Counted from the first letter of the stretch, positions 2-51,000 are shown. The stretch is 64,000 bases of DNA from Peribolospora baueri (GCA_029717555.1 JAMDHS010000041.1:124001-188000); one strand, 5' to 3'. Numbers and translations: made by a program. The notes: generated by a model from the letters alone, not told the origin.

Positions 2-1168
2 TTGGCTGATAGCGAGGGGCGTTCAGACATATCTCGCATCGCCACTTCCGTGGCAAGGTCACGTTTCCGCACCAAGGACGACTTTGTGCGTCAGGCGGTC
101 GCTTGCGTCACCAACAACTACATGGCATCCCTGGGTCCCAGAATCGTCGTCCTTTTGTTGTCGTGCGTCCTCAATCAGACGGAGTGGATGAGGTCGACAT
201 CGATGCAGCTCGTCAAGGTCGTCTTCCACAATGTGGACATGCGCACGCCGGAGTATGCCGACCTGGGCACAGAGCTGCTCATGCCTCTCCTCCGACTCCT
301 TTCTACGAACCTGGCAGCTCAAGCTCTGGACGTCCTGGACGAACCACTCGTCGTGTCCGGCGGGCCCACGCCAGCACAGATCCTACGCATGAGTGTGTCC
401 GGTCGGCTTTCGAAGACTAGAGAGCTTCTCGCCAGCGGCTCCGTGTTCGGAGAGCCAGACGACAGTGGCTGGTGCACTCCCGACCCATCAGCTCAAATGG
501 CGGTCACTCGGCTTAACGTTCAGGCTGTCTTCAAGGTCTGTGAGGCCACCTTAGATATCGCCCCAATGTCATCCAACGTGGACTTCGTTATGGATGATTA
601 CTACGGCGACGAGCCGTTCACGGCAATCGGTGCACACGTCGCGCCTGACGCGGCCGAGACGTCCAGTCTCGGAGATATGGTCTCTCAGCTTCATGACCTG
701 TCTTCCTTCTTCGGGGACGACGCGGTGCCGACCCCCAATTCCATGCGCTACCCTCACACCGAGCTTAGCGCTATGTATCCCCACGCGAACACTTCCCACG
801 CGCAGATAGCTGCCATCCTCTCACGATCAGTCGCGCCCTCAATCGCCTCTGATGACGTTTCTTCCATCGGCCCCTCCTTGGCCTCCATTCCGGAGGAGCG
901 GGATCGGGACCGAGACGTCTTCTTCGAAGCACCATCGACCCCAGTGGACGCTATGACCACTGCTCACTCCTCCGTCATCTCGCCTCAGTCGTCAGAGGGT
1001 AGCAGTGAGGAGGCCGGTGCTTTTAATTTGGAGCCCGTGCGCACGCCACCGCGCAAGTTCCGTCTTACAATGCCACGTAAGGTTCCTCGACCACCGATGC
1101 CGACCACTCCGAGCCGGCATGCTACTTCCCCTTCGTATGACAGCCAAAGGAACCGCGGTGGCGGCTGA
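2..1168 (+). CDS. TAO3: Cell morphogenesis protein TAO3/PAG1/MOR2 (Furry family), C-terminal part; 5' end lies outside the window
   Basis: Open frame from the window edge to TGA 1168. The segment 'LLLSCVLNQTEWMRSTSMQLVKVVF...ELLMPLLRLLSTNLAAQALDVLDE...VFGEPDDSGW' resembles the MOR2-PAG1 C-terminal domain. Confidence 0.8.
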   Translation: MADSEGRSDISRIATSVARSRFRTKDDFVRQAVACVTNNYMASLGPRIVVLLLSCVLNQTEWMRSTSMQLVKVVFHNVDMRTPEYADLGTELLMPLLRLLSTNLAAQALDVLDEPLVVSGGPTPAQILRMSVSGRLSKTRELLASGSVFGEPDDSGWCTPDPSAQMAVTRLNVQAVFKVCEATLDIAPMSSNVDFVMDDYYGDEPFTAIGAHVAPDAAETSSLGDMVSQLHDLSSFFGDDAVPTPNSMRYPHTELSAMYPHANTSHAQIAAILSRSVAPSIASDDVSSIGPSLASIPEERDRDRDVFFEAPSTPVDAMTTAHSSVISPQSSEGSSEEAGAFNLEPVRTPPRKFRLTMPRKVPRPPMPTTPSRHATSPSYDSQRNRGGG

Positions 1169-1556: not shown

Positions 1557-4500
1557 CTAGCAGCGCTCGAAGACTGGGAGCGGAAAAGTTGCGGAAGATC
1601 AGCAGAAAGTCGACATTTTAGGTACGGGCGGAACTCCTTGCTCACCTCTGTAAAGGCTTTGGAGATCCGTGACCTGAACGACGTCCTCCGCCTCCAGCAA
1701 CCGTTTTGGGGCGACGAAGTACTTCCTCAGCCCAGACAAGAACGTATGCTGGAGATGCCACTTCTCGGAAGCCTCGATCTGCTTCTCCCGAGCGCGGTCG
1801 GCTTCCAAGGTCTCTCCGTCTGCGTCATTCTCTGTCACCTCGCCGGACGAACCGGATGGAACCGCAGGAACGTAGAACCAAGCGAGCTCGCGGAGGAACG
1901 TTTCGAAGCAGGCCCTCTCGTCACTCCAATCCACCTGCGGCCCTAGCCGCATGAGAAAGTCGGGTAGCCGGTCGAGGTTTGGAGTGTAGCCTTTGAGGAG
2001 CATGGGGAGTGATTCCAGCTCCCCAGATTCGGAGATGCACATCGAAAAGTACTCGTTCATCATCTCCCGGTTAGCGAGAAGGATTGAGCAAATCGTCTGA
2101 AAGCATGTCAAGGGCAGAACACGAGCGTCAGTCTAGACGGACGCTACTTGGAGCTCGTTCACGAACGTCTGGCTCACATCTGTCGCCTCCTCTTTACTCA
2201 TGTCCGCCTTTTCCTCAACATCAGCTTCTGCCGCGATGGCGAGAGCGACGAGCTCGCGGATTGAAGGCGGTGGATCGAGCTTGAGCCGGCGGAAGGCGCC
2301 GAACTGCCGAAGGGCCATCTGATAAGCGTACTCTTCACTGCGGCCGGACACGAGAAGCAAAGGCATGAGTTCACGGACGTTGCTTGGGTGAACGTGGGCT
2401 TGTGCATGACGGGTTGACTGACCAAATGATGAAATGATTGATGAGATAGAGCTTTGTGGCGTGTTGGATCAGTGATAACGAGAGATCAAGGTCGACGATA
2501 CCGACGAAGGTCATATTTTGCAGGACGTCGGTCAACGCTGTACCAAGGAGACACAATGTCACACTGAGGATGAGGTGGAACGCTCATAACCAGAGACAGT
2601 GCGAGGCTGAGCTTTGAACGCCGGTACTGACCTGAGTGTTTCTGCTTCATGACTTCCTTCCTCATCGCTTTCACGCTTTCTAACAGAGTCTCGCTTTCCG
2701 GAACCTTGCCTCCTTCCGCCTCGCCCTGGGCCGATGGTTGTCGCGAAAGAGATGTTTCGGACTGGGAAGCTCCCCAATTCGGCACCATGGCGTGAAGCGT
2801 CCTGTCATTTTGGTTCACTCGAACCACGTGCTGGGGGTATCCTTTTCGCGATGACATTGGCAAACCTGCTAGAAAAAGAGATCACGTTCGACAGTACGAC
2901 TGGCGGCGTCAGATAGAGAAACAGGCAGCGCTAAACCGCAACCGACCAACCACCCACCGCCCTGTGCGGAGCTCTTTTCCGAGCGATCGCCAGTCTCCGG
3001 AATAGATGCCGCGCCAGGGAGGAGAGTTTGCTGGGAGCACAACGGAAAAACAAAGGATGGAGGCAAGAAAGTCAGTCCGCTGACACAAGATTTGTTGCAC
3101 CATTGACGCCGCCGCACAAAGGGCACGATCACTCACCGTAAACGCAAACGTTCGCGAAGTATTCGCCCCGACGAGCGCGTCCTGGAGGGCCTTGCAAACA
3201 GCTTCTATTACGTCGTCCTCGTCGAGGAAGTGCACCTCTCGCTTCGTCGGATGGACGTTGACGTCAACCTTGTGAGGATCGATGAGCAGGCTGAGGTACA
3301 TGAACGGGTGTCCCCCTTTGGGCAAGAGATTGGAATAGAGCGCCTCGAGAGAGCGTTTCAGAGATGATGACTCCACGAGTCGATCTGTAGGAATGAACAA
3401 GGTCAACTCGTTGGAAAACATCGATGACTTCAGTCAAAAACTCCCGGGAGTGTGGACGCAATAAGCTCGCGCACTTACGATTAATAAAAAGCAGCATGGT
3501 GGTCTTCTTCGCGCTCCAGTTGGCATTCGTAAACCATCCTTCGCCTTCGAATCCCAACTGGACGTTCTTTCCGGTCTCTAATCGGACAAGCTCCCGAGCG
3601 ATGGCAGAACCGTAGAGGAGGCGGATGTTCGACAGGACGGTGGCGTTGGAAGATGGCGTGGATACGTCAGCCGCGTTGGATGTCGCCTATGTGTGAAGAA
3701 GAAAAACGTTAAGATGCACAATCGGTAAAAGCTGGCCAACCGGACACCAGGACGCTTCTGTCCATGCAATTGTTCGACTGACCTTTTTGCACACAAAGCT
3801 CACGCCAGCGTTATGAACCGCATAACGGGTGACCACGTCCAATACCCTGCCGTATTCCTCTGTTGCCGATTTCAGTGCCCGACGACGAGTGGGCACGTTG
3901 TAAAACAGATCCTCGGCCGTGATAGTCGTTCCATCATTACCGGCGGTCGGTTTCGCCGATGCCGCGGCGCCCGGTTTCGACGGCAAGAGGACGCCATCCG
4001 AGTAAGAAGCTCTGTGCAAAGGAAATCAATTGTTAGAACGGACGAATCAGTACACAGACGTCGGGAGCGCGCCCAAAACTCCTAGAGCGCTCACTTCCAC
4101 GCGCAGCTATCTTCCCTGGTCTTGGTAACAACACTCAAATGGGCGACGTGACTAATGCTCGCCAACGCCTCTCCGCGAAAACCGTACGTGGCGATCTTGC
4201 TGAGGTCTGAAAAGGAGGAGAGCTTCGAGGTGGTGAAGCGCTCGCAAAGGATGGGGAGGTCGGAGACCTGCAATTGCAAGAAGATGAAAGCAAATGCCTC
4301 ATCTGAACACCCCACGCTTCGCGAAATCCATGGAGCAATGCACACCTGGCTTACCCTAATACCGCAGCCGTTGTCCTGAATCTGAAGGAGCTTCAAGCCG
4401 CCCTCCTTGAGGGTGACCTTGATCTGCGTGGCGCCAGCGTCAAGCGAGTTCTCAATGAGCTCTTTCAGCGCGTTCGCCGGTCGATGAATGATCTGGATGC

Positions 4501-16031: not shown

Positions 16032-19000
16032 CTAGAAGCCTCCCATGCGCTTCTTCCCCCTTTTTTTCGCCGTGCCAGCGCCGCTACCGCCTCCGTGCCC
16101 CGGTCGACCACCAAACCTCCCCGCCACGGGCTGCGTGCTTGGAACTGGAAGACCAGATTGGGAATGCTGGGATTGCGACTGCGACTGCGATTGCGAGTGA
16201 GAAGAGAACGAAGGCAAATCCTCCACCGCTTGCGAGTGGGCCTGCCAAAAGGGGAAAGGCGATGGTTGAGATGGTTGGGAATGCGTAGAGAGCGTGGGGA
16301 CCTGACGGCGGCCTAGGGCACCTGCTTGCGAGCTTGGACGGTGCGGCGTCGCCGTCATCGACGCCCGAGAACTTAGGCTCTCACTCAGAGTCGCCGTGCT
16401 GAATGGACCGCTCTCCCCTGCCTCACTCTCCATCGCCTCATACGGGTCGACATAGACAAAGTCTCTCGGGTCCGTCCCCAAACGCCAGTCGCTTAAAAGC
16501 AGCTTCGCAGCGGGCGTGGCGACCTTGTCTTCGAATCGAACGCCTGCGGCGCCGTCTTCTCCTTCTTCCTCCTCGTCTTGCCTCTCCTCCGCCTCATCGA
16601 TCGCTGAAGGTTTTAAACCCCCCAAAGCGGCACGGCGCGCACGTTGCTTACGAGCGTCGATGGGTTTAAAATAGGAGAAGCCGATAGGGGGTAGCAGCGC
16701 CCCCGTTTCCGGGTCGATCGTCCGCCATTCCGGGAAGACGGCCGGGTCAGAGCCTAGAGGTTGACATTGTGAAGCCGCCTTGTCCGCTTTCACCTTGATC
16801 GTCTGGCTCGCATGACCTTCTTGCCGAGAACGATCCGTATCCACGTCCATGACGTCCGAGTCTTGGGTCCTCATTTCAGCGGCCGGGCCGCGAAATTCGT
16901 TGGGACTCAGCACGCGGGAAGAAAGGACCAGGTCGAGAACGACTTGACTGGCCGCTCTCTGCTGTACCCGACTCCTCTGGGGATCATGGACACGTTCGCT
17001 CTGGACACGATACCGGTCCTGCAAAGCGCGCGTTGCGTGCGCGATGGCCTCTCCGCTATGCGCATGTGGTAGGTCGGCGAACGTCTGTCTGACGTGTTGC
17101 TCAAGGGAGAACTCCCACCCGGCGTCCCGTGCCAGCCAGTCAGATGACGTTATAAGTCTGTTGGCTTGCCGAAGCACGTCGTCGCTAGCCTGGAGAGCAT
17201 GTGGGGACAGGAAGGAGAGCCGAGTTCCTCGCAGACGATCGGTTGCGAGCTCGGCCGCGTCGTAGCTGCATTCGTGAGAAAGACAAGTTTCATTCAGCAC
17301 CGCCATGTCTTCGAGGAAAGCTCCGCGGCTCAAAGCTCGTCTCGACGAATATTACTCACATCGTGATCATCGAATCCGGCAGCGTTTCCCGTTCTGCCAA
17401 CACGGCTCGCAGGGTCTCCAGCTGGGTCGAATCGTCCGTTGGTCTGTCGGTTTGAGGGTCACAGCAAATCTCTGCAAATGAAGGTTCGCGATATGATTGA
17501 AGTAAGCACGGACGACGACGACGACGACGACGACGGCACCAGTTCGCCCACATTCGGTCGAGAATTGTTGCTCACCTCGATACACGGTCGCGAGGTCCAT
17601 CAGCGTCCGATCTCTACCAGCATAAGGTACAGGGTCCTCTTCTTCTTCGTCCCTTTCATCCTCGGCTTCGAGATTCTCAACCGCCCTGGTACGCTGCACA
17701 GTCATCGTCTCCGACGCGTCTGGGAACGACGCTTCGGACTTCTCTTTACGAGATGGTCCAGGAGCGAACTCACGGTAGAAGAGAGCTCCTCGATCTGAGA
17801 GCTCGAAGAGGGCGACGCCATCAAGCCTCCTTTGCTCGATGGCATCGGCATCCCCTGCGGCTATGTCATTCCACTCTCGGTCAAGTACCGTCGCAGGGCA
17901 TGAGACCAGACCGGCGCGGCTCATGCCTGTCGGAAGAGTGTGGATAACCTGGAAAGGCGGAGCATCCGAATGTGCTCTTCCTTCGGATACTGAGCAGACG
18001 TGTGCCGTCAGGAGTGGGCTGTGGCGGGAGCTTAAGAGAACAGCCGTGGCTAAAGCACATAAAAAAGAGCAGACGGATACGCCCTCGATGAATGAGCTTC
18101 AGCATAAGGAGAACAAACAAAGTCCTAACTTACGCTGTCCAGGGATCTTCAGCGCATCCAGCGTAAGTGTCCTATCCCGACGCCTGTGATGTTTCCAAGC
18201 CGTAACCGGTCGTCCAGGGCGACGCTCATCGAACCAGAGAACTTCGTCGGTTGTAGAGGCGCAGAAGAGCTGCGTTTGGTCGAGTTGGGTCGCAGTGAGA
18301 AGAGACGTGAAAGAATGGGAAGAATGGAAAGCCGAGTAGAGGAGACTGCGTGCCGAGGACTAAAAAATGGGAATGCAGCAAAACCCGCTGTTCCTGTCAG
18401 AATCCGTGTATTTTCCTGTGCCCACCAAACGATGCAAAGTGAACGAAGGCTCACACGCATGTCGACCCTCTCCACGCCCTTGTCTCCAGCGACAAAAATT
18501 GAGTTCGAGTCCGAACCCCAAGCAGCCCGCCAAAACAAGCTGTCCTTCTGTGTGTCTAGGAGCAAAGACGTGCCTTTCGCGGCACAAGTGGAGGACCGCA
18601 CAGGGTACTGGCCTTTGTTTCTATGAGCCAGGTATGGCGGCAAGTGGATTGTAGGTGGCATGGACATGCGAGGTCAGCAATCATGCATACGTACGCACTC
18701 CTGCGTCGTTCTGGCGAGTCCGAGCAACGCTGCAGACACACATTTCGATGTTCCACGTAAATACCTCCCCAGCTATGTTGACGAGGGCGCCGGTGCCTCT
18801 ATCGAAAGGGCTGGCGATGACGTCGGCATGACGCTTCCCGCCTGTTTGTGCCTTCTCCAGCACGAACAACGGGCGAGCATCGAGAAGAGGGGGATGGTCC
18901 TTGGAGGTGCGCCAACGACCTGAGGGCTTCTCCACTGAGAAGAGAGATGTGGAAGACAGAGTACGGACGATGATCCATGGTCCGCGATGGGTGACCCGGG

Positions 19001-20071
19001 AGTGGTAGGCCAGTTCGGCCGGCTGGGCGCAGGCGACAATTTGCTGAATAGGCGTTGAAAAGGTGGCTGTGGGCTTGACATTTGGGAGGAAGACTCGCCT
19101 TCCGGGCTCGCGGGTCAAAATCGGGGAGATATCTTGCAAGCATATACCAAGCACAAATCAGCGAGGTGGAACGCGAGCGGACGGGCAGGTCGCCGTCGTC
19201 TGGATGGCTCAGGAAACTCACTCAGTTCGCAGTCCCACTTCCCGCCAGGTCGGACGATCAAATCAGGAGGGTGTCGACCTTCCACCGCCCTCACGAGAGT
19301 GAGACGGTTCCCTGGGAAGAGATCCGGCGTGGACAGGTCGTCCAAGGCGTGGCGATCGGCCACGATGGCGTCCTGTAGCAGGCTGGGCGGGATGGAAACG
19401 GACGGGTGGAATGTGCGCAAGTAACGAAGCTATGCGCATTCGAAAGAGGGACGGAGATGAAAAGATGAGTTGATTCCGCTTGGCCTTGTTAGCCAATCTC
19501 CAGCCGTTATCACTCACTCCTCGGTCCGCCGCATCGAGCGACGACACTGCCTGGGAATCGCGTTCTCTCTTTCGGAAAGAAGGAGCGAGCTTGACACGGC
19601 GCGACACAGGATTAAGGCCCACATCTGCGTTCCAAACAGGCATACACAATAGATCAATCCTGAGGATAGGCCTCGACAGCACACCGCTAAAAGCGAAAAG
19701 GAGGCTCACCGTTCCTTCGCCCGGCAGAAAACTCCCACAGCAGCCTTGCCCTACCCAGGCTTTCGCCGCCGCCTCCTCCTCTTTCTGTTCTCTCACCATC
19801 CCCTTCCCCCTCGCCAGCCTCCACCTGCCTCAAAGAAGCCGCGGCCAGGTATCCAAAGTCGAGCAAAGTAGACGTATTGTGAAAGCCGACGGCGGTATCG
19901 ACGACTTCCTTCCGTGTGCGGCCCGAAGCGCGAGCGGTCGTGACACGGTCAACCGTGCGCTAACCCTATCCGAGCGTGATTGCCACGTGATGTCTCCGCT
20001 GCAGTCAGGGTCCAATACTACGCCGTGGGGCGGGGTAAACGTAATTCACCTGTACGACCCCGCTCTGGCAT
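16032..20071 (-). CDS. RRN6: RNA polymerase I core factor subunit RRN6/TAF1C-like, multi-exon; start codon uncertain
   Basis: N-terminal 'LDFGYLAAASL...WEF' and 'LRYLRTFHPSV'; beta-propeller segments 'FSTPIQQI' and 'GGKRHADVIASPF..GALVNIAGEVFTW'; 'LFELSDRGAL'; 'AKLLLSDWRLGTDPRDFVYVDPY'; family-typical end 'STQPVAGRFGGR...KKRMGGF*'. Confidence 0.78.
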
Positions 20072-20106
20072 CGTCTCGCCCCTTCATCCTCTCTTTGCGT
20101 CTCGAA

Positions 20107-21412
20107 ATGAGCGACCATGTCGTCGCGCAAGTCCAGGAGACAGGTCGAGGCTTGGAAACGACCGTCAGGAAGCATAATGGCTCTACGGCTACCCCCGCAA
20201 AAAAACGCAAGCGAACCCGCGTTTCTCAGGCGTGCGTACCTTGCAGGCGCAGGAACGTCCGATGCGATGGAAGACCACCCGCGTGCGGCCAGTGCGTAGA
20301 TCCGGAGGAAGTCTGCACTTGGCCAGAAATTGACAGGCGAAGGAAGGTCAAGAAGGCGAAGGTGGTCTCCGGGACGGATGCGGAGCAGGCGCCTACCAGC
20401 AGCAGAGAAGAAAGCGAGATGGAGGAGGACAGACAGGGGGCGACGACGGCGGCTTCGTTTACTGGAAGAAGTCCTTCCCCTGTGCCCAGTTTCAGTAACA
20501 CGTCGTTTCCATCGCATCTCTTCAACCTCAGCATGCCGTCGTTCACCGCGCACGGGCCTCAAGGCGAGCACGACGCAGTGCGGGGTCGTATTGGGGACGT
20601 TCCGGTCAGTTTCAAAGCTTTCCCGGGCTCTCTGACCTACATATTGTACTTACGTTAGCTTTCATTACTTTAGGCCTCTTCACTTTCCTTGCCTACGGGC
20701 GGCAACTCGTCAATGGCGCCCATGTCGGCCCTACGCGACCTGTCCTGGCTGACCAGCCCACCGCACTTCTGTTCGGCGCAGGCGCAAGCAGACTCCAATA
20801 CCCCATTCTCCGGCGACGGGTTTGCCCCAGGATCCAGTGCTATGCACATAAATGATTCAGGGTCCTCCTCTCTCCACGGCAATGTATCCTCATTCAATCA
20901 GCTCCTTTTACCCCACGACTTTACTCAAACCGATCCCAGCACCCACCTCACTTCCGGCTTGCACGACCTACTCCTCCAGCCGGATGCCCTGGATGCCCTC
21001 GCCGGACAGGTTGCATTTTTGGGGCATTCTAGCCCTTCCGGAACTGAGGGGAGCGCGGCTAGTGCCTCCAGGACTGGAAGGATGAACGCAGACGGTGAAG
21101 ATGCGTGGCTTGGTAGGGTTGCGGACGAGGACGACGGAGCAGGCGGAACGGAGGATCTCGAGGTGGCGGAGACAGCCCAATCAAGTAGGTCTCGACTAGT
21201 GAAGGTGAGTCATTAGAGGACGAATTGACGTTCATTCTTTTGCTCATCCAACAACATTGATGTCGGTACCTTGTCCATTCGACGCTGCATAGGTGTACTA
21301 TTTCCGTTATTTCGACCAAAGGTCACGAACACGCAGACGCCATCGCAAAGCACTACGGCGTGCGGGCGAAGGCGTACAAGTGCCAGGTCAAGGAAGCGCA
21401 GCAGGTCTTTGA
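20107..21412 (+). pseudogene. Truncated Zn(II)2Cys6 transcription factor (DNA-binding domain only; no regulatory/MHR domain)
   Basis: 'KRTRVSQACVPCRRRNVRCDGRPPACGQCVDPEEVCTW'. Exons 20107-20604, 20674-21204 and 21293-21412 (382 aa). After 'RLVKVYYFRYF' the frame runs into SDR sequence in the wrong frame and stops at TGA 21410-21412. Confidence 0.75.
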
Positions 21413-32671: not shown

Positions 32672-33715
32672 TTAAGCAAGAGTCTTGTTGAAGAAGGAGA
32701 TAAGAGCGCTGATGGAGCCCTCGTAAGCGTCCTTGATCTGAGGCTTGCTCAAGTCCGGACGGCAAGCGAAGCCGTGCACGGCGCCCTCGTACGTCTTGCT
32801 GAGGTCGGAGTAGAGGCCCTTCTCCTTGGCGGCCTTGAGGAAGGCGTCCTTCTTCTCCCCCGAAAATGCATCGTCCTCCTCAGCCATGTTGAAGAGGACG
32901 GGAGTGGAGAGCTTGTCCGCCTCGGCGGGCTCGAGGAGGGAAGGGTGGTTGAAGGCGATCGCATCGGCGAGACCGGCGTTGGAGGCGAGGAAGGTGATCT
33001 TGCCTCCGTAGCAGTAGCCCGTGGCACCCACCTTACCCTCCTTCTTGAGCTCCTTGAGCACAGGCTCCGTGAGGCCCCAGGCGACGTCGGGGCTGTGGCC
33101 CTTGCCGAACCCTGCGGAGCGTGGAGAGGACATGCAGTGAGTCATTGTTCCGTCTATCGCAGATCAACAAGTGAATCGTACGAAGAGAAAGGAGACATGG
33201 GATTGAGGACGCACAAGCCATGAGGTTCTTCATGTTTTCCGTCTTCTCCTCGTCAGTGACAGTGTCGGACGTGTGGCTCTTGTGCTTCATGGCCGACTCG
33301 GGAAGAGGGTCGCCTGGAAAGTCATGGGTGAATGGCAAGATGAGGGCGGACTCAAAAAACATGGCAAAGCTCGTTTTGCCTACACGCGAGGTCGGACGCA
33401 CCCTTAAAGTAGTCAACAACGACGACCTTCCTCCCGGTCTCCTTGGCGATGCGGTCGGCCATGATCTTCGCGTTGATAGCGAGACCGAAGACGTCGGGGA
33501 GGTAAGCGACGGCGCCAGCCTTCTTGGCGTCAATCGCGGGCTCGGCCACGTAGCAGTCCGTGCCGGCGATCTTGACGATCTTACCCTCGGGCGTGCCGGG
33601 GATGACAGCGTGTTCGGTGCACTGCGGAAGACGAAGAGGCGGGAGGATAAGCCCTTGCTTTCCACCCCGGCCGACGCTGGTCGATGAGGCTGCTCACCTT
33701 GTCACAGAAAGACAT
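32672..33715 (-). CDS. Dienelactone hydrolase family alpha/beta hydrolase (AIM2-like)
   Basis: 'MSFCDKC...GTPEGKIVKIAGTDCYVA', 'LPDVFG', 'DYFKGDP', nucleophile 'GYCYGG', 'AEEDDAF' and 'YEGAVHGFACR'. Confidence 0.92.
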
Positions 33716-34356: not shown

Positions 34357-37300
34357 TCACCGCCGGGGAGCAGGCGCTGTACACAGAGGACCAGGTCAGC
34401 ACGACCATCAATAGAAGCCCAACACCGAAGTCAACACCGAAGTGCGCACTCTTCCGGTAGCGCGCTTTTGACTCACCGAAGTTGACGGAGACGGGCGCGA
34501 GGAAGTCCCGCCTTCCTCGCACCGGAGAGATGTCTATCCGGGCTGCGGCCAAAGGAGGCGGCGCGTCGTCTGTGGACAAGTGTAATGGAAGGGGATGGAC
34601 GTGATTTTGACCAGACTCATAAGAAGGGGATATCTTCGAGCAGAGCGGCCGACAGAAGAGAAAGCGCTAACTCACCGTTCGCCATAGATATGGGCGGGGG
34701 AGCGAGTGTTGCCGCCGACTGTACGGTGACACCAAGCCGAAGACGCCATTAGCAAAGCTGCGAACAGAAGGCCCACCGGCGCCGGCGACGTCTGAACTCA
34801 CCCCAAGGTGCTTGGCTTTGATGGCGAACAGATCCGAAATCTCTTGCTCGAGCGCCTTCTTCGCCTCGCGAATTTGGGCGACATCGTCGAACATGTTCAC
34901 CACCTCTTGGCTTAGCACCTTCTTCAGGTCCTCTGCATGGTGATTCACATTCGCGTTGAGCATCTCCCGAGCCGCTGAATGGACTGCATGGAGCATTCGC
35001 TCGTTGTGCTGGCCATGGTCGACGATGAACTCTGTTAAATGGGAGAACAGGCCAACGGTCGAACGAACGCACGAGCCTCTCAGCTCATGTCTTTCGGAGA
35101 ACGGTAGTGGCTCGCTCCAGTCGCCAATGACACTTACGATCGATCATCTGCTTCATCACGGTGTCTTGCTCCGACCTGCTCTTCGCCTGGTCCTCCCGCT
35201 GCTGATTGATCGCCTGGACCAGCATCTCGATGGCTGGGCGAGGAACACAGGGAAAGAAGCTGAATGAGTACCAGTGCCATTGTCCACCCAGACAGATGGG
35301 GCATGCTCACCCGTCTTGGGATCGAGATCCCTGTCCTCGGCTGCCTTCCTGGCCTCCTCCTCTGCCCTGGCGCTTTCCAGCCTGCCGAACAGCATCTCCA
35401 TAAGCGAGAACCTCCCGTGCTCCTCAGCCTCCCTTCTCCTCCTCTCCCGATCCGCCTCGTACGCTTCTCGGTCCGCCTTTTCCTTCTCAGCCCTGAGCCT
35501 CGCCTCCTCCCTTTCCCTCGCATCCAACTCCTTCCTCTCGATCAGGTGCTTGAGAATCTCTTCCACGGCCAGACCGAGGGCGCCCACACTTGGCGCATCG
35601 CCCGTGATGCTCGGGGCCGAGCCGCCGCCACTGGCAGCTTCCACCTTGGACTCTTTCGGGGCTTCGTCCTTTTTCTCCTCCGATTGCTCCTTGGTCGCCT
35701 CCGCCGCTGTCCCAGCAGCATCTTCGACGACGCTCTCGGCCTTGTCCTTTGCATCGCCTCCCTCTGCCGCATCTGTCGCGCCTTTGGCCTCTTCCTTGGC
35801 CTCCTCCTTGGGCCCCTCCTTGGCCTCCTCCTTGGCTTCCTCCTTGGCCTCCTCCTTGGCCTCCTCCTCGGCCTCCTCCTTGGCCCCTTCCTTAGCTGCA
35901 CTAGTCTCTGCAGCAGCAGCAGCTTCCGCCAGTTCCTTCCTGGCGTACCAAGTCCACTTTCGCCGGAGGCCGTCTCTCTCCTCCTTCTCCGCGTTGGGTG
36001 CCCATACCTTAGCGCGGGAGGTGTGCCGACGAGACCCAAACCTGCGTTCCCAGGGTCGGTGAGCCATGTCATCGATCATCGCCGCTTCCATCGCTTCCGG
36101 TGGCGGACCGTCGAGCGGCGGGCCAACCGGAGGTGGGGCGACAGCTGGAGGGAGTAGAAAAGAAGAAAGGTCACAAATCAAGGCGTCAGCTCAAGGAGCT
36201 CTTAGCAACCACAACTTATAGCCCCCTGGAGATACGCACGACCTTCACCCGCGGCAACGTCTGGCGGAGGACCAAGAGGTGGCGGGGCGGACGGGACGTG
36301 ACTTATCGACCGAGACCCGAGAGGCGAGGACCCAGACTCGATCCTCTCGATCACGGTGCCAGGAGGAGGACTCAATGGTGGACCCACGACGCTTCGCGGA
36401 CCTACGGACATTGGGCCCATTGGGCCCATCGGACCCATCGGACCCATCGGACCTATCGGACCCATCGGCGGAGGCCCCATTCCCACGCCAGGAGGAGGGC
36501 CCATTGGTGCACCCATCCCAGGTCCCATTGGCCCCATACTCATCCCCATACCAGGAGGTCCCATCCCCTGTACTCCGCCCATCTCAGGGGGCGGGCCCAT
36601 GGGAGGTGGGGCAGAGGGCATCCTCATACTGCCATGCGGGCCTCCCGCAACACTCGGTGGGTAGTACGTCGACGAGACGTCTGGAGGCGGCGAGCGGGGC
36701 GGAGGGGCTGCAGGTTGTCCCATCCCGGGCTCCGGCATCCGCATTCTGCCGGATCCGGACTCCCCTCCTTCGACGGCAGCACCACCCCCATCCGTCGGGA
36801 TCCCTCCCGATCCGGGCGGCCTTCCCCTACTTCCATTAGAACTGGTCTGGTTGGCGAACGCTTCGAGCATCTCTTTCCTTTCTCGTTCTCGATCCGCCTG
36901 GTCTCGCTCCAGCCACTTGTTGAGCTCCACGAGGTAGCGCGCAATGTCCGCCTGCTGACGGCTGTGGTGCTCGCGCGCCGCCTCGTGCTCTTTGAGCAAC
37001 GTCATGAGTTCAGCCACCCCAACTCCACCCTCTGCGCCTGCTGCAGCTGACCCGAGTCCTCCGCCGCGACTATGATGAGACGTGCCTTCCGACACTGAAG
37101 GCCCGCGGGTATCGCGGACTGTCCTCTCAGAATCCGGAGAAGACAGCCTCGTAGCAGCACGCGGGGAACCAGTATCCCCGGCAGTCCAGAATTGGGAAGG
37201 CACGGACTCGGAAACGGAGGCTCCATCTGCATCGACGAGTGTCCGAGGGCGGTGCGAAGAGGCTACGCTGCGACTCGTAGTGGGCCGGATTGATGCCGCA

Positions 37301-40300: not shown

Positions 40301-42507
40301 GGCGGTGGTGAAAACGTCACTGGAGCTCCTCTCGCTGTCGGCGGTTGGGCTTTTTGAGTCGATCAGACCATCTTCCGATGTCGCAGCGAGCTCTTCGGGA
40401 CGAGAAGTAGCGGCGAGGACGACGGATCTGGGCCTCTCCCTCTCGCGGTTACGGATGCGGGATAGGACGCCGCGGGTACGTGGAGAAAGGATGGCGTCTT
40501 CCATCTCTTCGCGGGAGGAGGAAAAGCTTTTGGATCGCCTTCGGCCTTTGCGCCAGCCCGAAGTACCGACCGCGCTCGTGGAAGTCGGATCGGGCGTGCT
40601 TGCAGATGTGGCCAAGCTGGCGTTACCTTCGAACATCTGGATCAGCGCCTTGGTCTTTCCTTTGGTCGGCGTCGAGGTGCTGCCAAATCTCCGCCGGTTG
40701 GCCCCAGCATCAACGTCAGACGTGGCGCGCCGTCGGAAGTCGCCACGCACGCCGGCAGCGGCGCGAGGGAGGGGCAATTGAGGCGAGCTGTTGGTAGCCA
40801 TGTGCATGCTCTGTTCCGTAGCCGGCGGTCTGCCCGTTTCGCTGGTTCTGCTGCTGCTACTGCACGCCTCGGCGTTGGGCGAGCCGAGCAGGCCGAGTCG
40901 TTCGATTAAGGGTCGATCACTGTCTTCGAGGGCGACTGCTTCCATCAACTGGTCAAGCACCTCTTCGCTCCTCGTGCTTACAGAAGGCTTCAGCGCCTTG
41001 TCGTTGCTGCCACTTCCAGAGACGACGCTGGTAGCCGGAGTGTAGGTGGAGTCATGAGTGCTGTGGCTGCGGGGCACACCGTCGGCGAAAAGACGAGCCT
41101 CACGGCGCGAGTAAGGAGCTCGGATAAGGACGCTACCCCATAAGCTCGTGCGCGCCGCGGACGAGACGGCGGATGAGCCCGGCGAAAAAATGCTCCTGTC
41201 GCTGAGGGACCGATTGGGCAGGTCGAAAAGGGGGGGGGCACGAGTGAAGGCTGTGTGGAAGGACGACGGCGGGCTGGTGGAGACTGGTCGATCTTCCATG
41301 ACGAACAAAGGGAAAAGGCACAACCGTGGTGTGAGCGCGAATGACCCGAGCGGGAAGAAGGAAGCGGCAGTCGATCGAGGCGATATTCATACTCCGCCTC
41401 GCGTGGCGAGACGACGACGACCGGCCAACTCTCGAACCTTCGGTCCTGGTACTCACCATGATCGTCGGCTTTTACCGTTTCTTCATGCGCGCTCTCCGGT
41501 TCGCCTTCATGCGCGAGACCCAAGGCAAGGCCCACCGTCGTGCTCCAGTATCCCTCTCCAGCGTCCGTGCGCGGGGTCACTTCTGTGCCCAGCGCAACCT
41601 CTGTCTCTTCTGCGCCGCCACCATTACTGGGCGCCTCCTCGGCGACAGCCAGGCCACGTTCCGTCAACGTTTCGTTATCGACTTGTTGACCTGCGGCCCT
41701 CTCCGCCTCTTCCTTCTCCTTCGACCGTGTAATCTGCCTCCACAACATCCTTCCCTCCCCCTTGCTCACCAGCAGCGCGTTCTTCAGAGGCGGGGAGAAT
41801 GAGCCAGAAGGTGTGGGCGTGCTGCTGTCGCTCGCCGTCCTTCTTCTACCTCCCCCGCTGAGCGCTCCCAGACTGCCTCGTCTGTCGTCTTGGAGACGGT
41901 TCCGCCTCGACGGCGTGTCTCTTCGGTCCTCGAGCGAGCTGGAACGCCGAAAGTCGGATAATAGGGAGGTGTTCGCGCTCCAGATGGTCGGCAGTCGCTG
42001 CTGACCTTCTCCAATCCGAGGACGAGAGCAACGAAACGGAGGCGCAAAATTGCGGAAGGAGGAAAAGGACGAGAGAGGAGCAATTTGTGCGTCGGAAAGG
42101 GACAGCGAGTCGGAGGAGAAGCGTGGGATGGAAGCGGAGGAGGCGGAGGGAGAGCAAGGCTGCGAACGGGAGCGGCGTGCAGTGGAAAGGAGAGCCGGTG
42201 GTGGGAGAAGGGCGGGGTCGAGGAGAGAGACGTCGAGCTGGGTTGGGAAGAAGTCGGAAGCGTTAGGAGGGAGGTCGGAGGTGGAGGATGTGCGAGTCCT
42301 TCGTCGCGAGAAGGAGAAGATGCTTGGTAGTCGGAAGCCCCTTTCGGTACCAGTCTTGGTACGCTCGTCCAAGTCCCTTCTGCGGACCATCCACCTGGAA
42401 AGCGCCGTCCGGCCAAGGGAAGCGTCCGCCTCGCTGGCCGCACGTCTTCGAAGGGAGAAACGTCGGCTTGGCGGCGGCGATTCGCTCTCCCCCGAGATGC
42501 TGGCCAT
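34357..42507 (-). CDS. Very large (>2000 aa), mostly low-complexity protein with a central PH-like domain and C-terminal coiled coil; function unknown
   Basis: ORFs 40990-42882, 39380-41323, 38987-39313, 36202-38925, 35156-36181 and 34667-34996 appear to join via GT-AG introns (some junctions checked, not all). PH-like 'WHEAHAILLPTALALSW...LDLRACREV...YQLIFDDGVERLGSMSARDRVAWMGAI'. Likely ATG 42507, likely stop 34357 (…NFAPAPRR*). Confidence 0.65.
35784..35891 (-). repeat. Coding 12-bp tandem repeat x9 encoding (EEAK)n
   Basis: TTGGCCTCCTCC units on the + strand; translation KEGAKEEAEEEAKEEAKEEAKEEAKEGPKEEAKEEAK. Confidence 0.9.
36409..36465 (-). repeat. Coding 9-bp tandem repeat x6 encoding (GPM)n
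   Basis: CATCGGACC/CATTGGGCC units; translation MGPIGPMGPMGPMGPMGPM. Confidence 0.9.
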
Positions 42508-43228
42508 TCGGCGAGAAATGTGTCGTGAATGCTTGTCGATCAGCGCGGCTCCGCCGGGCCGGGGGTGGGCTTGCTGCTCCAAGGGGGGTGGCGCCACGGG
42601 GAAGGGAAATGGCAGAGGGAATGTGTAAATGTGTACTAGATGAACAGGAGTGCTCGTGGTATCAGGTTCAACGAGGCACGGTAGAGAGGGAATCCGATAT
42701 GTCTCGTGAACTGGCGGGTCTGGCGACCGCGATGGCGACGGTGGCTTTGTTTCCTCTCCCCTCACAGCACGCCGACACGCGTCGAGGGTGATGTGGTCAC
42801 GTGATGCAGCGAGTTCTCGAGGGCGCCAACTACTCGGCCAGTCAGCCCGGCTCGGGACGAGGGAGGACGGACCTGGAGGCACGGCGTCGTTGAGGGGCGT
42901 CGGCGTGACCGATGCGGCGACGACTCTACGACCGACTGCCTGCTGATAACGTTCTACGTATGGCGTCCGTATCCGTCGCCCCAGCTCGTCCAGAGCTCGT
43001 ACCCATAGCTTCTTCGGTAGTCCGCAGCAGATAGATTACGTTACCCTGGGCACCCAGCTCATCGCCGCAGTTTAGGGTCTACATATATAAGCCCCCCCGT
43101 CCCCGCAGACGGGGCGAACGTGCAATCGGACTTTGTAGCCCACCAGCCAATGTTCAGGGTAGCGCGCACGCGAAGAACGTCTTCCAATCTTGCCGTTCGT
43201 CTCTCTTTCACTTTTTACCACCCACCCC

Positions 43229-44604
43229 ATGTCCAACCTCGTGCTACCCCGTCGCGGCGGTAGGAGCAGGGCTCGTTCGGACGCCGGAGCCGGTACCGGT
43301 GTCGGTGCCGGCACCAGCGCGGGATCGCAGTCAGTGCCGGTCCATTCGTCATCGGCGTTGACGCCAGCGCCGGCGGCAAGACGGGGATCAGCCGAGTTGG
43401 ACGCACCGGAGGACTCGGAGTCAACGCTGATCACCGCCATGCAGGCCGTCCAGCTGGCGCAGCTCGATCGTGCCGCCGCGTCGGCACTCTCCTCGATCGG
43501 CGCCGCTGCCGTGAGTCCGGCGGCATTGAGTCGGTACCAGCACCGACGACATACGCTTGTCGGACAGGGCAGGGCATTCAGCGAGCACCAGAGGCGGCCT
43601 TGGATTTCCAACGCCAAGCCGGGAAAGGTGCGGGGCGACAAGAGGCGGCCGATCGAGGTGTGCGACAAGGCCGAGTTGGAGGACCTCTTGGCCCACAACG
43701 AGGGTCTTCTGAAGAACGGGTGAGCAGAGATGAGAGAAGCTCGGTGGCGGGCGTGGGAATTCATAGTTGCTCCTCGTCGTCCGCAATCTGACTCTATGCT
43801 ACGCGGGCATTCCCAGGTCGGCCATTGCTAGTCTCCCGGACGGTGGTGCCAAGCTGCGAGACTCGACGAGTGCGATTCAGGCACGCCTCTCCGAGCTGTC
43901 CAGGATGGAGGGCATAGAGAACGGCCTGGAGGGGACGCACATCTACCCAGCTGAATCGCCCGATCCGGCGGCCATCTCTCCTACGTCGGCGGTCAACTCG
44001 ATCTTCTCCGTCACCTCGGTGACCCGTGCGGTCCAGTCATCGCCGCCGAGGCGGGACGATGAGGAGATGGACGAGGACGGCGCAGACGGCGCGGCGGTGG
44101 AGATGCAGATCAACGGATCATGGCCGGGGATCGGGGGCGATAGATTGAATGACCAAGCGAACGGGGAGGATCACATGGTGATCATGGACTGGCGGAAACG
44201 ACTTATGGCCGCTGAACCTGTGAGTATCTAGATAGGAAGGACCCCTGCTGGCTCGTGCTCATCATTCCGATCCAATCTCGTCATCCCAGGCCTACGACCA
44301 AATCCATTCGCGCACCCTCCCGCTCTCCCTCCGCGAATCGCTAGAGCTGTCGGGCGCGCATTGGCGACAGACAGAGGCGCATCGGGAGCGGGTGCTGCAC
44401 GCGCGGATGAGGCATGCGGAGAGGGCGAGGAGGGTGGCGGCGGGAGAGATGGGGGAGGAGGAGGAGGATGGGGAGGTGGAGTACGATGACGTGGAGGATG
44501 GGGAAGGCAGCGAGAAGGACGTGGCGGAGACACCGTATAGCGGGGATGGGGCGGGCATCGACTGGAGTACGGGCAGCGGCGGCGGCGGCGTGTTCGGCTC
44601 TTGA
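43229..44604 (+). CDS. Gdown1/POLR2M (GRINL1A)-like protein, 3 exons, 402 aa
   Basis: Exons 43229-43719, 43817-44219 and 44290-44604 (1209 nt, GT-AG, in frame). Spliced motif 'ELEDLLAHNEGLLKNGSAIASLPDGGAKLRDSTSAIQARLSE' and C-terminal 'HSRTLPLSLRESLEL', followed by a helix and an acidic tail. TATA-like TATATAAG at ~43084. Confidence 0.72.
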
Positions 44605-45102
44605 CGTTGGCGGACAGACGCCAACGCCAGGTGTCGGTCGTTTTCGTGGGTCGAAATGTCGACGAGATCTATCTGGTCTCGATCGTCGTCGCTTTTTTGG
44701 GGGGCCCTTGCTCGTACTGTCTTGCCTTTCTTACCCGCACTCTCAACTGGGCGATCCCGCCCCATCTACCATCTACATGACACCCATCTTTCCCGTCCAC
44801 TCTCTATTACCCGCCCGGCGCTCTCATCCTGTCCGTCTCTCTCTCCCTCGCATGTATTTGTACCGCATGTATCACTGCGCGCTCGGTTCGCTTTCGTTCT
44901 CCCGTCTCCGCGCCGCCGTTTACCGTCGAATGTCAAGGGCGTACGTACGCTGCATGGGCCTTCTCCCGAGTCACTCACTCCCTCATCGATGGACGGATGG
45001 ATTCATTGAAGGACTCGGTAAACGTAGCGGTGCGCTCGAAAGAAGAGACGCGTGTCCTCGCCTCGCCTCGACTCCGCTCTACTCGACCGGAGATGCTGCA
45101 TA

Positions 45103-45759
45103 TCAGGCCATCTGCTTTCGGATCTCCGCGACCGTGGTGCCCTTGTAGCTGTGTGAGGAACGCGAGCGAGCGAGCAAACAAATAAACAAATATACAAACG
45201 AGCAACCCACGCTCACTGAGACCGCCTTTTTCTACTCCTCTTCCTCTCTCGCACACTCACCCAATGTTACCAGTGCCAGCGTCATAAAAATCAATATAAG
45301 CCCTATCGTTCTCCACGCCAAGCTTGTCCTTAAGGAACCGGGAAAAAGCGGCGCTCTTGGTCCGGTTCGAGTCTTGGTCGAGGCCGAGGGACATGCACAT
45401 CACTTGGGCCGCTGGGTCGAAGGTGCCGGCGAAGGTGAGCGAGGGGACGTGTTGGCTGGCGGGAGAGCGTGAAGTGGGGGGTAAATAAAAGGGTAAGCAG
45501 AATAATAATGAATAAATAAATATATAAATATATAAATAAAAAGACCTACTAGGAAACGCTGATCGTCTTTTCAGGCTTGCCGAGCGTCTCGGCGGCGACC
45601 TTGAAGCGCGAAGGGAGAGAAGGCGGTCTGGGGGGTCAGCCGTCGTGCGGCACGGAGACGGCCGCACCGCCCACCCGCGTGACGCACCTTGGAGAACTCG
45701 AGGGCAAAGGCCTTCTCGTCGGGCACTTGGACGTTGGTGACCAGCTTGACGTACGGCAT
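45103..45759 (-). CDS. Macrophage migration inhibitory factor (MIF)/tautomerase family protein, 4 exons
   Basis: 'MPYVKLVTNV' (Pro-1 after Met removal), 'VAAETLGKPEKTISVSY', 'LTFAGTFDPA' and 'LGVENDRAYIDFYD...NIGYKGTT'. Confidence 0.9.
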
Positions 45760-46518
45760 GTTTTCGTGTCACTTCACTTCACTCACTTGTCTGGTCTGGT
45801 CTGGGTGGACTTGGTGGAGGAGGATGTGGAGAGGAAGGGGGGGTTCACGGTTTTGTATAATGCCCGCTTGTGTGTCTGCCCCGCAGCCGGCGGCCGGCGG
45901 ATGATCGGGTCCCTGCTCGGAAGTCGGCGGACTTGGTGACCATCTAGCCGAGCGTGTCTTCTACGTGCTCCCTTCTTCCCCTCCCTCCCCTCACTTTCTT
46001 TCTCATGCACCCGCCGTGCTCATCGCACACGCCATACCATGGGCGCCCATGTGCTTGTGCTTGGGCCTGCCGCCCCTGCCACCTCCACCTCGTCCGACCG
46101 ACTTCTCCGGACGCGGATGCGGTGGACATACGTACGTCTTAGTCGGTCCTCTTCGGCTTCTCGGGCCCTCGGATCGCGGAGACGCACGGGAGGCCGTGGT
46201 GAGCGACGCGGCTAGCGAGCGAGTGCCTCTTGTCCTGTCTTTCTGCCCAAGGAACGGAGAGGGGCGTCTGAGGGGGAAGAAGAGCGGCGACGGCGTGAGA
46301 GAGATGAATTGGAGAGTGTACACATATATATCTGCATGGAAGAGGCGTCGAACCATGCACCGGTCGTCGTCTGTCGACTGACTGTCTACAGAGGTGGTGT
46401 AAGAACTTGGACGGGCCTGGTGTAGGCTCTACCCCACACACTCTCTCTCTGTGTCTCCCCCCTCCCGCCCATCCATCCCATCGGCCGGCCGGCGTGGGTG
46501 TTCATTGGCTTGCCTCGC

Positions 46519-48077: not shown

Positions 48078-51000
48078 TTTCTTCCTTCTGTCCATCCCTC
48101 CGTCCGATGGTTCCTCGCGCCCGATGAGATCAATATCTGTCGTGTCGGCATCTGAAGTGAATCAGGGCGTCGTGATGCCGCGAACTGCGCCGGCGATAGC
48201 CGCGGCCGTCTCGGTGCATCAGGGCGAGACGAGGCGGGGACTGTAGTATATAGTATATATCTTCTCGGACGGGCACTGTCCACCTGGCAAGCTTGCTTGC
48301 GATCGACGCCGCCCTCCGCTTCCATCTCCTCCCTTTCCTTCGAGTCCCGCTCTCTTCTCTCTTCTCTCTTCTCCCTCTTTTCTTCCTTCTACTCCCCCCT
48401 CTTCCCTTCGTCTTCTCCCTCTCCAAATGGCCTCCGAACCCCGCTTTCTCACCTCGGACCCCTACTCCTCCTCTCGTCGGCCCCCCTCCCGCTCCTCTTC
48501 CATCTCCTCCCTCCTCAGGAAACGCAACTCGCACGCCTCCTTCAACGACGACGCCGCATCCACCTACCGCGACGATGGCACCGCCGCCTCCATCCGCTCG
48601 TCCACCGTTTCCAAAGGAAGCAAGCTCTCCTCTCTCTTCTCCCGCTCTAATAGCGCACATCTCGATACCAATGGCAAAGCCAACGGCACCACCCCCCGAG
48701 ACGACGCCCTAGACGCCGACCTTTCCACCCTGCCCATCCGCCCGCGCACCCCCTCGACGAGCTCCAGAAACGCCACCTCCAAGACCATCGGTAAGATCTT
48801 CCGCCGCTCCTCTCGATCCACCGCTCCCTCCCGCGTTTCCGACATCGACGCCGCCGACGACGCCGCGCCCCCGCCGTCGCTCCCCGTCAGCGCCAACGGA
48901 CACGCCCCCAACGCCGACGACGCGCAGCCGGCCAAGGCGGAGGATGTCCCGGCCCCGGCCACCACCGCCGTCGAGCAAGGCAAGCTCGACGTGCCGCTCT
49001 CAGCGTCTCCCACCGATATCCGTGACCAGGACGCTGCTGCCCCCGACTCGCCCGTAAGGGAAGGCCTCGGCTTTGCCGAGAACGGCGAGTCGGACAGCAG
49101 CAGCGAAGATGAATTCTTCGAGGCCTACGAAGCCGACCTGGCCGCCATCGCCGAGGACGAGGAGGACGACGATGTCGCGTCCCCTTCCACGGCCGCCGCC
49201 GCTGCTCGGTCCGCTCCCGCAGCCAACATCACCGACCACGCCGGACGAGCGTCGCCTGAGCCGTCCAACGAAACCGACCTGGAGGGCATCCGCGCCCGCA
49301 ACCCAGAGCTGGCCAAAGCGCTTGAGGGCATCCCCACGGAGGATCTGTTCAAGGCGGTGAGCGAAAAGGCCAAGGAGCAGACGGGCAAGGCGTTCCGATT
49401 GACGTTCCAGGACGTCGTTCAATCCGAGGACGAGATGAACGCCGACCTGGGCGAGGCCAAGAAGGCCATGGACCTCTTCCTCAACTCGAGGATGCTCGAG
49501 GCCGAGTCCATCTGCATCCGTCACGCCAGCTCGCAGCTGTACTACTCTGTCGGTTACGCCCTGATTCAGTTCATCAAGTCGCTCATGACCTTTGAGCCCG
49601 CCGACCTACACCAGGCCATCGATCACGCCAAGGACAGCTTGCACATCTCGTCGCTCCTCCGCAAGCACGTCGGCTCCATCTCCTCCGTCACCCGCTTCGT
49701 CCGTGGCACCGGCCCCAGCCCGTCCGCCATGGCCGGCATGACCCGCGTCCAGCGCCACGCCGAGCTCATCTACGGCGAGAGTCTGCTTCTCAAAGCGGTC
49801 GTAGGAATCGCCTACTCGGGTGACTTTTTCGCCTTTGTCAAAGAGGCTCTCAACATGCGTAACGCTTACGGAATTTATAGGAGCTTGGCCAAGTACGTCG
49901 AGTGGGCAGACGCTCAGGCCGTCAAGCGTGGAGATCCGAGGGATTTGAGCTTGGATGAGGACTTCCGCAGCGGCGTTTACCTCGGTAACGGCCTCATTAG
50001 CATGATCCTCGGTCTCTTGCCCGGAAAGGTCCTCAAGGTCATGGAGGTCAGTCGACGTTCCGTTCCGGTCGCGGTGGTCCCATACTCAGCTTAAACTGAC
50101 ACTTTTCCTTTCCTTTCCTTTCGTTTCTAGGTCTTCGGCTACACCGGCGACAAAGTATACGCGCTCAACACGCTCGCCAAGGCCGCCGACTGGTCGCATG
50201 ATCCGGATGAGAGGGAGCCAGGGGTCGAACCGGAGAACGAGGGCGTTAGGAGGCAGATTGTGAGTTTTGGAAGGGGCCCGTCAAGCTCGTCGGCTCCGTC
50301 GCTGACATGCGTGCTTCATCTTTTCGCCCGTGCCAGTGCGACCTGGCCATCCTGTTGTACCATCTCCTCTTCTGGACCTACCTGCCCCTTTCCAACCCAT
50401 CCGTCGACATTGACTTTGCCGACAAGGTCCTCCACTACAACCTCCGCAGGTACCCTAAAGGCATCTTTTTCCTCTACTTTTCCGGACGCCTTTACTCTAG
50501 CCAGTGTCTCGCCGAGAAAGCCATCAATCAGTTCCAGACTGCCTTGGGCGCTCAGAAGGAGTATTTGCAGTTGCAGTGAGTAGATCGGCCCGGCCTGGGC
50601 AGCGAACGATCGTCATCACTGACTGTCCTGTCCCCTCGATCGCCCTGATCGTCGCTTCCCAGGCACATCTGTCAATGGGACATTGTACTCTGTCGCCTCG
50701 GCTTGTGCGACTTTAAAGAGGCTTACAAAGGTCTTACTATCCTCCGTGCCGAGTCGAACTGGTCCAAGGCCGTCTAGTGAGCGCCTTTCCTTCCTCTGCC
50801 TGTCTCCGCGCCTGCCTTATCTTGGCGTCGCGCCTCGCCGTCTCCACCCACTGAAGCGTGGCGCTTTCTACGCCCGTTTTTCCGTCGTCATGCAGCACGT
50901 ACGGCATGGCCTGTTCGCTCTACGAGATGGGCGAGGACCCGAAGAAGGCGGCCGAGCTGTTCGCCTCGGTGCAAGACGCGATGCGGCGCATTGGTGGCAA

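Follow-up and report, generated by a model that had tools for sequence, protein, structure and literature searches.

The gene described here lies on the forward strand of a 64,000-nucleotide stretch of DNA from Peribolospora baueri, which we call the window, and consists of three exons separated by two short introns whose splice junctions are predicted (Table 1). An initial annotation of this DNA had proposed a 3-exon, 402-aa gene, and we found the same structure: joining the exons across two introns with GTGAG...CAG ends of fungal type leaves one uninterrupted frame of 402 codons. The exons are three successive open frames in three different phases of the + strand, and a CTGAC sequence is located in intron 1, about 30 nt 5' of the acceptor. 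Since intron 1 splits codon 164 (two bases before the intron and one after it), the residues NEGLLKNG are joined to SAIASLPDGG only in the spliced product. The earlier claim that the key motif appears only after splicing is thus borne out, with codon 164 divided by the intron and LPDGG just past the junction. Coding potential was scored with a codon table derived from eight window frames with strong matches in Pfam. Read in their own frames, exons 1, 2 and 3 are all positive, at +0.09, +0.18 and +0.06 bits per codon and with GC3 values of 0.76, 0.75 and 0.82, respectively, and the joined frame scores +0.11, versus -0.47 and -0.34 for the shifted frames. Of the six intron frames, five are negative, including all three of intron 1. 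These coding statistics favour the exon-intron model given here. Two antisense open frames, of 251 and 157 codons, run over the gene; they score -0.02 and +0.13, the latter level with the sense exons, and probably mirror the G+C-rich coding sequence on the opposite strand. A value of +0.08 was obtained for one antisense frame at the locus, and a slightly positive antisense score of this kind is the usual mirror effect.

Table 1 Positions of the gene, its parts and other features of the window
Feature	Position	Strand	Description
Whole gene	43229-44604	+	Three exons, two introns, 402 codons, TGA stop
Start ATG	43229	+	Read from the sequence
TATATAA, TATA-like element	43084-43090	+	139 nt 5' of the ATG; sequence reading, putative role
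Exon 1	43229-43719	+	Residues 1-163 and two bases of codon 164; ends in phase 2
Intron 1	43720-43816	+	97 nt, GTGAGC...CCCAG, phase 2; predicted junctions
Exon 2	43817-44219	+	Third base of codon 164, then residues 165-298
Intron 2	44220-44289	+	70 nt, GTGAGT...CCCAG, phase 0; predicted junctions
Exon 3	44290-44604	+	Residues 299-402 and TGA
GCOM2-matching stretch	43824-43928	+	Residues 167-201; Pfam PF15328
LPDGG	43833-43847	+	Residues 170-174, exon 2
Acidic linker	43908-44171	+	Residues 195-282; 18 D/E versus 4 K/R; predicted disorder
HMVIMDWRKRLMAAEP	44172-44219	+	Residues 283-298; short hydrophobic/basic helix
HSRTLPLSLRESLEL	44305-44349	+	Residues 304-318, start of exon 3; leucine-rich, leads into the long helix
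Long predicted helix	44323-44439	+	Residues 310-348 (39 residues); pLDDT 83-97, AlphaFold2
Acidic glycine-rich tail	44440-44601	+	Residues 349-402; 18 D/E and 1 K/R in 54 residues
Antisense open frame	43072-43827	-	251 codons
Antisense open frame	44292-44765	-	157 codons
Open frame, head to head with the gene	40990-43035	-	681 codons
MIF-family protein, convergent with the gene	45260-45778	-	Pfam
Iml2/TTC39	48247-50091	+	Pfam
Open frame with a CDC45 match	35159-36190	-	344 codons
Dienelactone hydrolase	32675-33163	-	Pfam
Zn2Cys6 transcription factor	19474-20655	+	Pfam
Rrn6-like gene pieces	16035-19157	-	Pfam
Mlh1, two pieces	1602-3433	-	Pfam
MOR2/PAG1 C-terminus	2-1165	+	Pfam

The encoded protein is predicted to be disordered apart from three short blocks, as judged from AlphaFold2 models computed without an alignment, on single sequences, with exon 2 and exon 3 folded separately. 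Residues 1-140, encoded by exon 1, are rich in G, S, A and P and basic, and exon 1 ends in a stretch, DKAELEDLLAHNEGLLKN, whose amphipathic pattern was recognised by reading the sequence. Just beyond the splice junction follows LPDGG, the single site of the LPDxG type in the six-frame translation of the whole window, and straight after it a helix is predicted at residues 173-194 (pLDDT 65-74). Most of residues ~202-284 have pLDDT values below 50. Within HMVIMDWRKRLMAAEP a helix is predicted at residues 289-295, with a pLDDT of about 55, and in exon 3 the leucines of LPLSL (308-312) continue into the 39-residue helix, beyond which the exon is disordered (pLDDT 49-70 in the tail). The combination of a helix, an acidic tail and a disordered linker that had been noted earlier is therefore recovered, as the helix at 310-348, the 18 D/E versus 1 K/R of the tail and the pLDDT below 50 of the linker. 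Long charged helices accompanied by acidic tails are frequent among disordered nuclear proteins.

A resemblance to a known family emerges from exon 2. We scanned 24736 Pfam models at E values up to 10, using contiguous exon pieces as queries instead of the whole 402 aa, and exon 2 produced a single match, to PF15328 (GCOM2; E 0.023, 15.4 bits); its first 40 aa matched the same model with E 0.0026 (18.4 bits) and the first 60 with E 0.0052 (17.5 bits). The alignment of exon 2 joins its residues 3-37 to profile positions 15-49 of 214, within the region 15-50 matched overall, at the start of the model. Since it begins at profile position 15 with residue 3 of this exon, no more than 14 positions are left that the last residues of exon 1 could fill. 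All PF15328 scores of these contiguous pieces fall 9-12 bits short of the curated (gathering) cut-off of 27 bits, so the match at the motif region is suggestive and not significant by the Pfam standard. No Pfam match at E up to 10 was obtained with exon 1 or with its last 30 and 45 residues, with the 23 residues that end exon 2, or with exon 3 or its first 44 residues. Among 103 other long frames of the window, none matched GCOM2 at E up to 0.03, which indicates that the model is not attracted by the composition of this genome. The same 103 frames gave about eight sub-threshold Pfam matches with E values of 0.0003-0.03. Several of these are clearly spurious, among them part of PEX6 within Mlh1 and a CDC45 match to an acidic frame, and a match of the strength of the GCOM2 match is therefore not rare.

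The ESM Atlas, in which scores below 0.9 serve as a lead only, points to the same family. For exon 2, whose recognition value of 2218 is below the 2300 mark, rank 1 is an unnamed euglenozoan cluster (0.85), followed at ranks 2 and 3 by GCOM2 clusters (0.82), one from chordates (95% of members with PF15328) and one from arthropods (58%). GCOM2 also accounts for six of the ten best family-bearing matches of this exon. Exon 3 gave no usable Atlas match. As GCOM2 was returned by Pfam and GCOM2 clusters by the Atlas, the resemblance is a real one. At the level of sequence, then, the protein does resemble GCOM2/Gdown1, yet weakly and below the accepted threshold. The initial annotation had presented the gene as a candidate fungal homologue of Gdown1/POLR2M, and this claim stands in part: GCOM2 is the sole Pfam family matched and occupies Atlas ranks 2-3, but the scores remain below 27 bits and no orthologue was found. 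It had also allowed that the best match might prove to be an unrelated family, and the only named Pfam family matched is GCOM2.

Broader searches concerned relatives of the protein. With phmmer, neither exon 1, exon 2, exon 3 nor a 40-aa motif piece matched a Gdown1 chain in a search of 177635 distinct sequences of solved structures (E up to 10), and entry 6DRD suggests that this set includes a Gdown1 chain. Matches of exon 3 to nucleolin (E 0.067) and to parvovirus coat proteins were attributed to its acidic, glycine-rich composition. Word-indexed protein searches, which cover longer proteins only, recovered no relative of exon 2 or exon 1, and with the first 60 aa of exon 2 they returned nothing at E up to 10. 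A phmmer search of 1.84 billion representatives with exon 2 returned one match (P0001), an 879-aa repeat protein aligned in six stretches of its own repeats, which we rejected as spurious. Metagenome scans gave 598 pattern matches for exon 2 and 397 for exon 3, with none confirmed. Across the protein and metagenome searches, no fungal or other orthologue linking the protein to the animal family was found. Libraries of this size demand about 40 bits for a match and the protein is disordered outside its three blocks, so these blank searches say little on whether an orthologue exists.

Gdown1, which is also known as POLR2M and GRINL1A, is a 13th subunit of RNA polymerase II (Pol II) in animals, present in sub-stoichiometric amounts and characterised by tight, salt-resistant binding to the polymerase and by competition with TFIIF and TTF2. 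The human POLR2M sequence would fit the alignment proposed earlier, with its putative 17 of 51 identities, and the residue numbers of the first preprint cited below, an agreement to which we give no evidential weight. Three Pol II-binding regions of human Gdown1 are described in that preprint (10.64898/2025.12.10.693371): (i) an RPB10-binding region (19-73) with three helices, LPDKG and the interface residues R30 and L44; (ii) an external-binding region (224-255) with one helix between unstructured segments; and (iii) a protrusion-binding region (290-344), in which L303/L304 lie at the base of the protrusion, right before a 40-residue helix (305-344). A second preprint, likewise of December 2025, reports these three interfaces between Gdown1 and Pol II as well (10.64898/2025.12.10.692585). 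LPDKG is reported to be functionally critical in Gdown1 (PMC4007455; PMC8887472) and, in the former, invariant from insects to primates except for LPDRG in Xenopus (PMC4007455).

The fungal protein shares several of these characteristics. Its LPDxG-helix module matches the start of the GCOM2 profile, with the amphipathic stretch before it read from the sequence, and both proteins are largely disordered. The elements follow the order described for Gdown1, namely the module, an acidic linker, a short helix, leucines with a helix of about 40 residues, and an acidic C-terminus. The last helix spans 39 residues in the fungal protein and 40 in the human one, each with leucines directly before it, and the overall sizes are 402 aa and 368 aa, the latter taken from the construct numbering 197-368 in PMC4007455. 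The HMVIMDWRKRLMAAEP helix is a possible counterpart of the external-binding helix in Gdown1. The C-terminal leucines and long helix would resemble the protrusion-binding region as a likeness of predicted architecture.

There are differences as well. The PF15328 score, determined for contiguous pieces, lies under the family cut-off, and no pairwise phmmer match between the exon pieces and the solved-structure chains was detectable. In the LPDxG signature claimed earlier, LPDGG is present and four of the five positions agree, but a G occupies the place of the basic residue of LPD[KR]G, which is K or R in animals (PMC4007455). About 140 residues precede the module in the fungal protein, whereas the human region given in the preprint is preceded by about 18, and the short helix is separated from the leucine stretch by about 14 residues, compared with about 35 between the human external- and protrusion-binding regions. 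A second conserved block had been proposed as well; the stretch HSRTLPLSLRESLEL does sit in exon 3, but it is without Pfam, solved-structure or Atlas support. Finally, the host is a fungus, whereas the cited papers place Gdown1 in metazoans, calling it "metazoan-restricted" (PMC8887472) or "metazoan-specific" (10.64898/2025.12.10.693371; 10.64898/2025.12.10.692585) and describing it as missing from yeast and worms (PMC3852498) or from yeast (PMC7704258). Our search of the full-text literature found no paper on a fungal Gdown1 homologue.

Given these likenesses and differences, we tentatively regard the gene product as a mostly disordered, divergent fungal relative of Gdown1 (POLR2M), which is the best explanation that we can offer. 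The analysis establishes the exon-intron model and the motifs, a prediction of helices and disorder, and a weak match of the first module to GCOM2; the homology, every Pol II contact and the function considered below are inferred. The Gdown1 interpretation as a whole is plausible and unproven, as no scanned piece reaches 27 bits.

It is quite possible, though somewhat less likely, that the resemblance arose by chance, and that the gene encodes a fast-evolving, lineage-restricted disordered protein of other function, for example a nuclear scaffold or an RNA-binding adaptor, in which an amphipathic helix, a turn and a second helix happen to fit the start of GCOM2. The deficit of 9-12 bits relative to the Pfam cut-off and the frequency of similar sub-threshold Pfam matches in the window are consistent with such an origin, as are the blank result among solved structures, the want of support for exons 1 and 3 and the failure of the protein and metagenome searches to find relatives. 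Moreover, very many genes were screened for the initial annotation, and in a screen of that size chance alone should produce some equally strong matches. On the other hand, two different methods, Pfam and the Atlas, converge on GCOM2 out of thousands of families, the match falls exactly on the motif that is described as critical in Gdown1 (PMC4007455; PMC8887472), and the order of elements mirrors the published Gdown1 layout. If the match is a chance one, the gene would be an ordinary lineage-specific disordered protein.

A related question is whether the likeness extends beyond the LPDxG motif. Highly conserved LPDKG is reported in both Gdown1 and TTF2 (PMC4007455), and both preprints predict that residues 410-458 of TTF2 bind RPB10 where the module of Gdown1 does (10.64898/2025.12.10.693371; 10.64898/2025.12.10.692585). 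An Rpb10-binding LPDxG module could therefore have come, by descent or by convergence, to lie in an otherwise unrelated protein with no orthology to Gdown1 and no action on TFIIF or the protrusion. The confinement of the statistical support to the module region agrees with this possibility, which we nevertheless consider unlikely: the C-terminal leucines, long helix and acidic tail have a parallel in the region of Gdown1 that binds the protrusion, there is no ATPase or other domain, and GCOM2 is the sole named family matched. With TTF2/lodestar itself, a Pol II termination factor of the SNF2 type, the fungal protein has in common an LPDxG-type motif; it is far shorter, and the Pfam scan of its exons (E up to 10) showed no SNF2, helicase, ATPase or other domain apart from the GCOM2 match. 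It is very improbable that there is no gene here, or one spliced otherwise, and that the motif junction is an artefact of joining frames in G+C-rich DNA, since the absence of the protein from protein collections (word-indexed searches, longer proteins) and the long antisense frames over the locus, one with a slightly positive coding score, are outweighed by the single uninterrupted 402-codon frame obtained through two short GTGAG...CAG introns, by exons that are all coding-positive in their own frames with GC3 of 0.75-0.82 next to mostly negative introns, and by a TATA-like element 139 nt upstream and a Pfam match in the same frame.

If the protein is a divergent relative of Gdown1, we propose a model in which its separate elements engage different surfaces of Pol II. 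The helix-LPDGG-helix module (residues ~142-194) would dock on Rpb10 and Rpb3, while the short helix at 283-298 and the leucine stretch with its 39-residue helix (304-348) would lie on the external and protrusion domains of Rpb2, and the acidic linker and tail would remain free. Once bound, the protein could rival TFIIF and TFIIB for access to the protrusion, and such competition would keep assembled or assembling Pol II inactive. Alternatively, the protein may accompany Pol II during its assembly. The small subunit of TFIIF and the core of TFIIB, with which Gdown1 competes, have protrusion-binding segments. The C-terminal helix of the fungal protein, if bound to the protrusion, would share with them this surface of Rpb2 (10.64898/2025.12.10.692585), which is a likeness of proposed function; no Pfam match to either family was found.

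It is possible, though we hold it to be less likely than not, that Gdown1 is older than animals, and that a basidiomycete-type fungus keeps a compact form of it with all three Pol II-binding elements, namely the Rpb10 module and the external and protrusion helices. In this scenario, a brake of the Pol II(G) type or a role in Pol II assembly would date to the fungal-animal ancestor or earlier and would have been lost in model yeasts. Were the relationship to hold, the implications would be several: (i) a fungal homologue would shift the origin of Gdown1 back to the opisthokont ancestor and would give a new member of a known family an unexpected phylogenetic position; (ii) it would reveal which contacts with Pol II, out of the three, are ancient; and (iii) it would offer a genetically tractable fungus for asking whether the main task of Gdown1 is to control transcription or to help in assembling and importing Pol II.

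As judged by Pfam, no Pol II subunit is encoded by the 103 other long frames that were scanned. The matches mark the window as fungal, with a Zn2Cys6 cluster, Rrn6, Mlh1, Iml2 and MOR2/PAG1, and the neighbouring genes so identified (Table 1) are ordinary fungal ones. The 681-codon frame that lies head to head with the gene is S/P/R-rich and has no Pfam match; its G+C content is flat across codon positions (0.63, 0.61, 0.62) and its coding score near zero, and it may be a disordered protein or a mere open frame of G+C-rich DNA. The 344-codon frame further away matches CDC45 with E 0.00034 and 19.5 bits, relative to a cut-off of 34, over profile positions 84-211, a match that is probably compositional and due to an acidic stretch. 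Elsewhere in the window are the pieces of a gene like Rrn6, which is part of the core factor of RNA polymerase I; the beta-propeller piece and the K-rich C-terminal piece are matched by Pfam with E values of 1.4e-09 and 5.8e-11, respectively.
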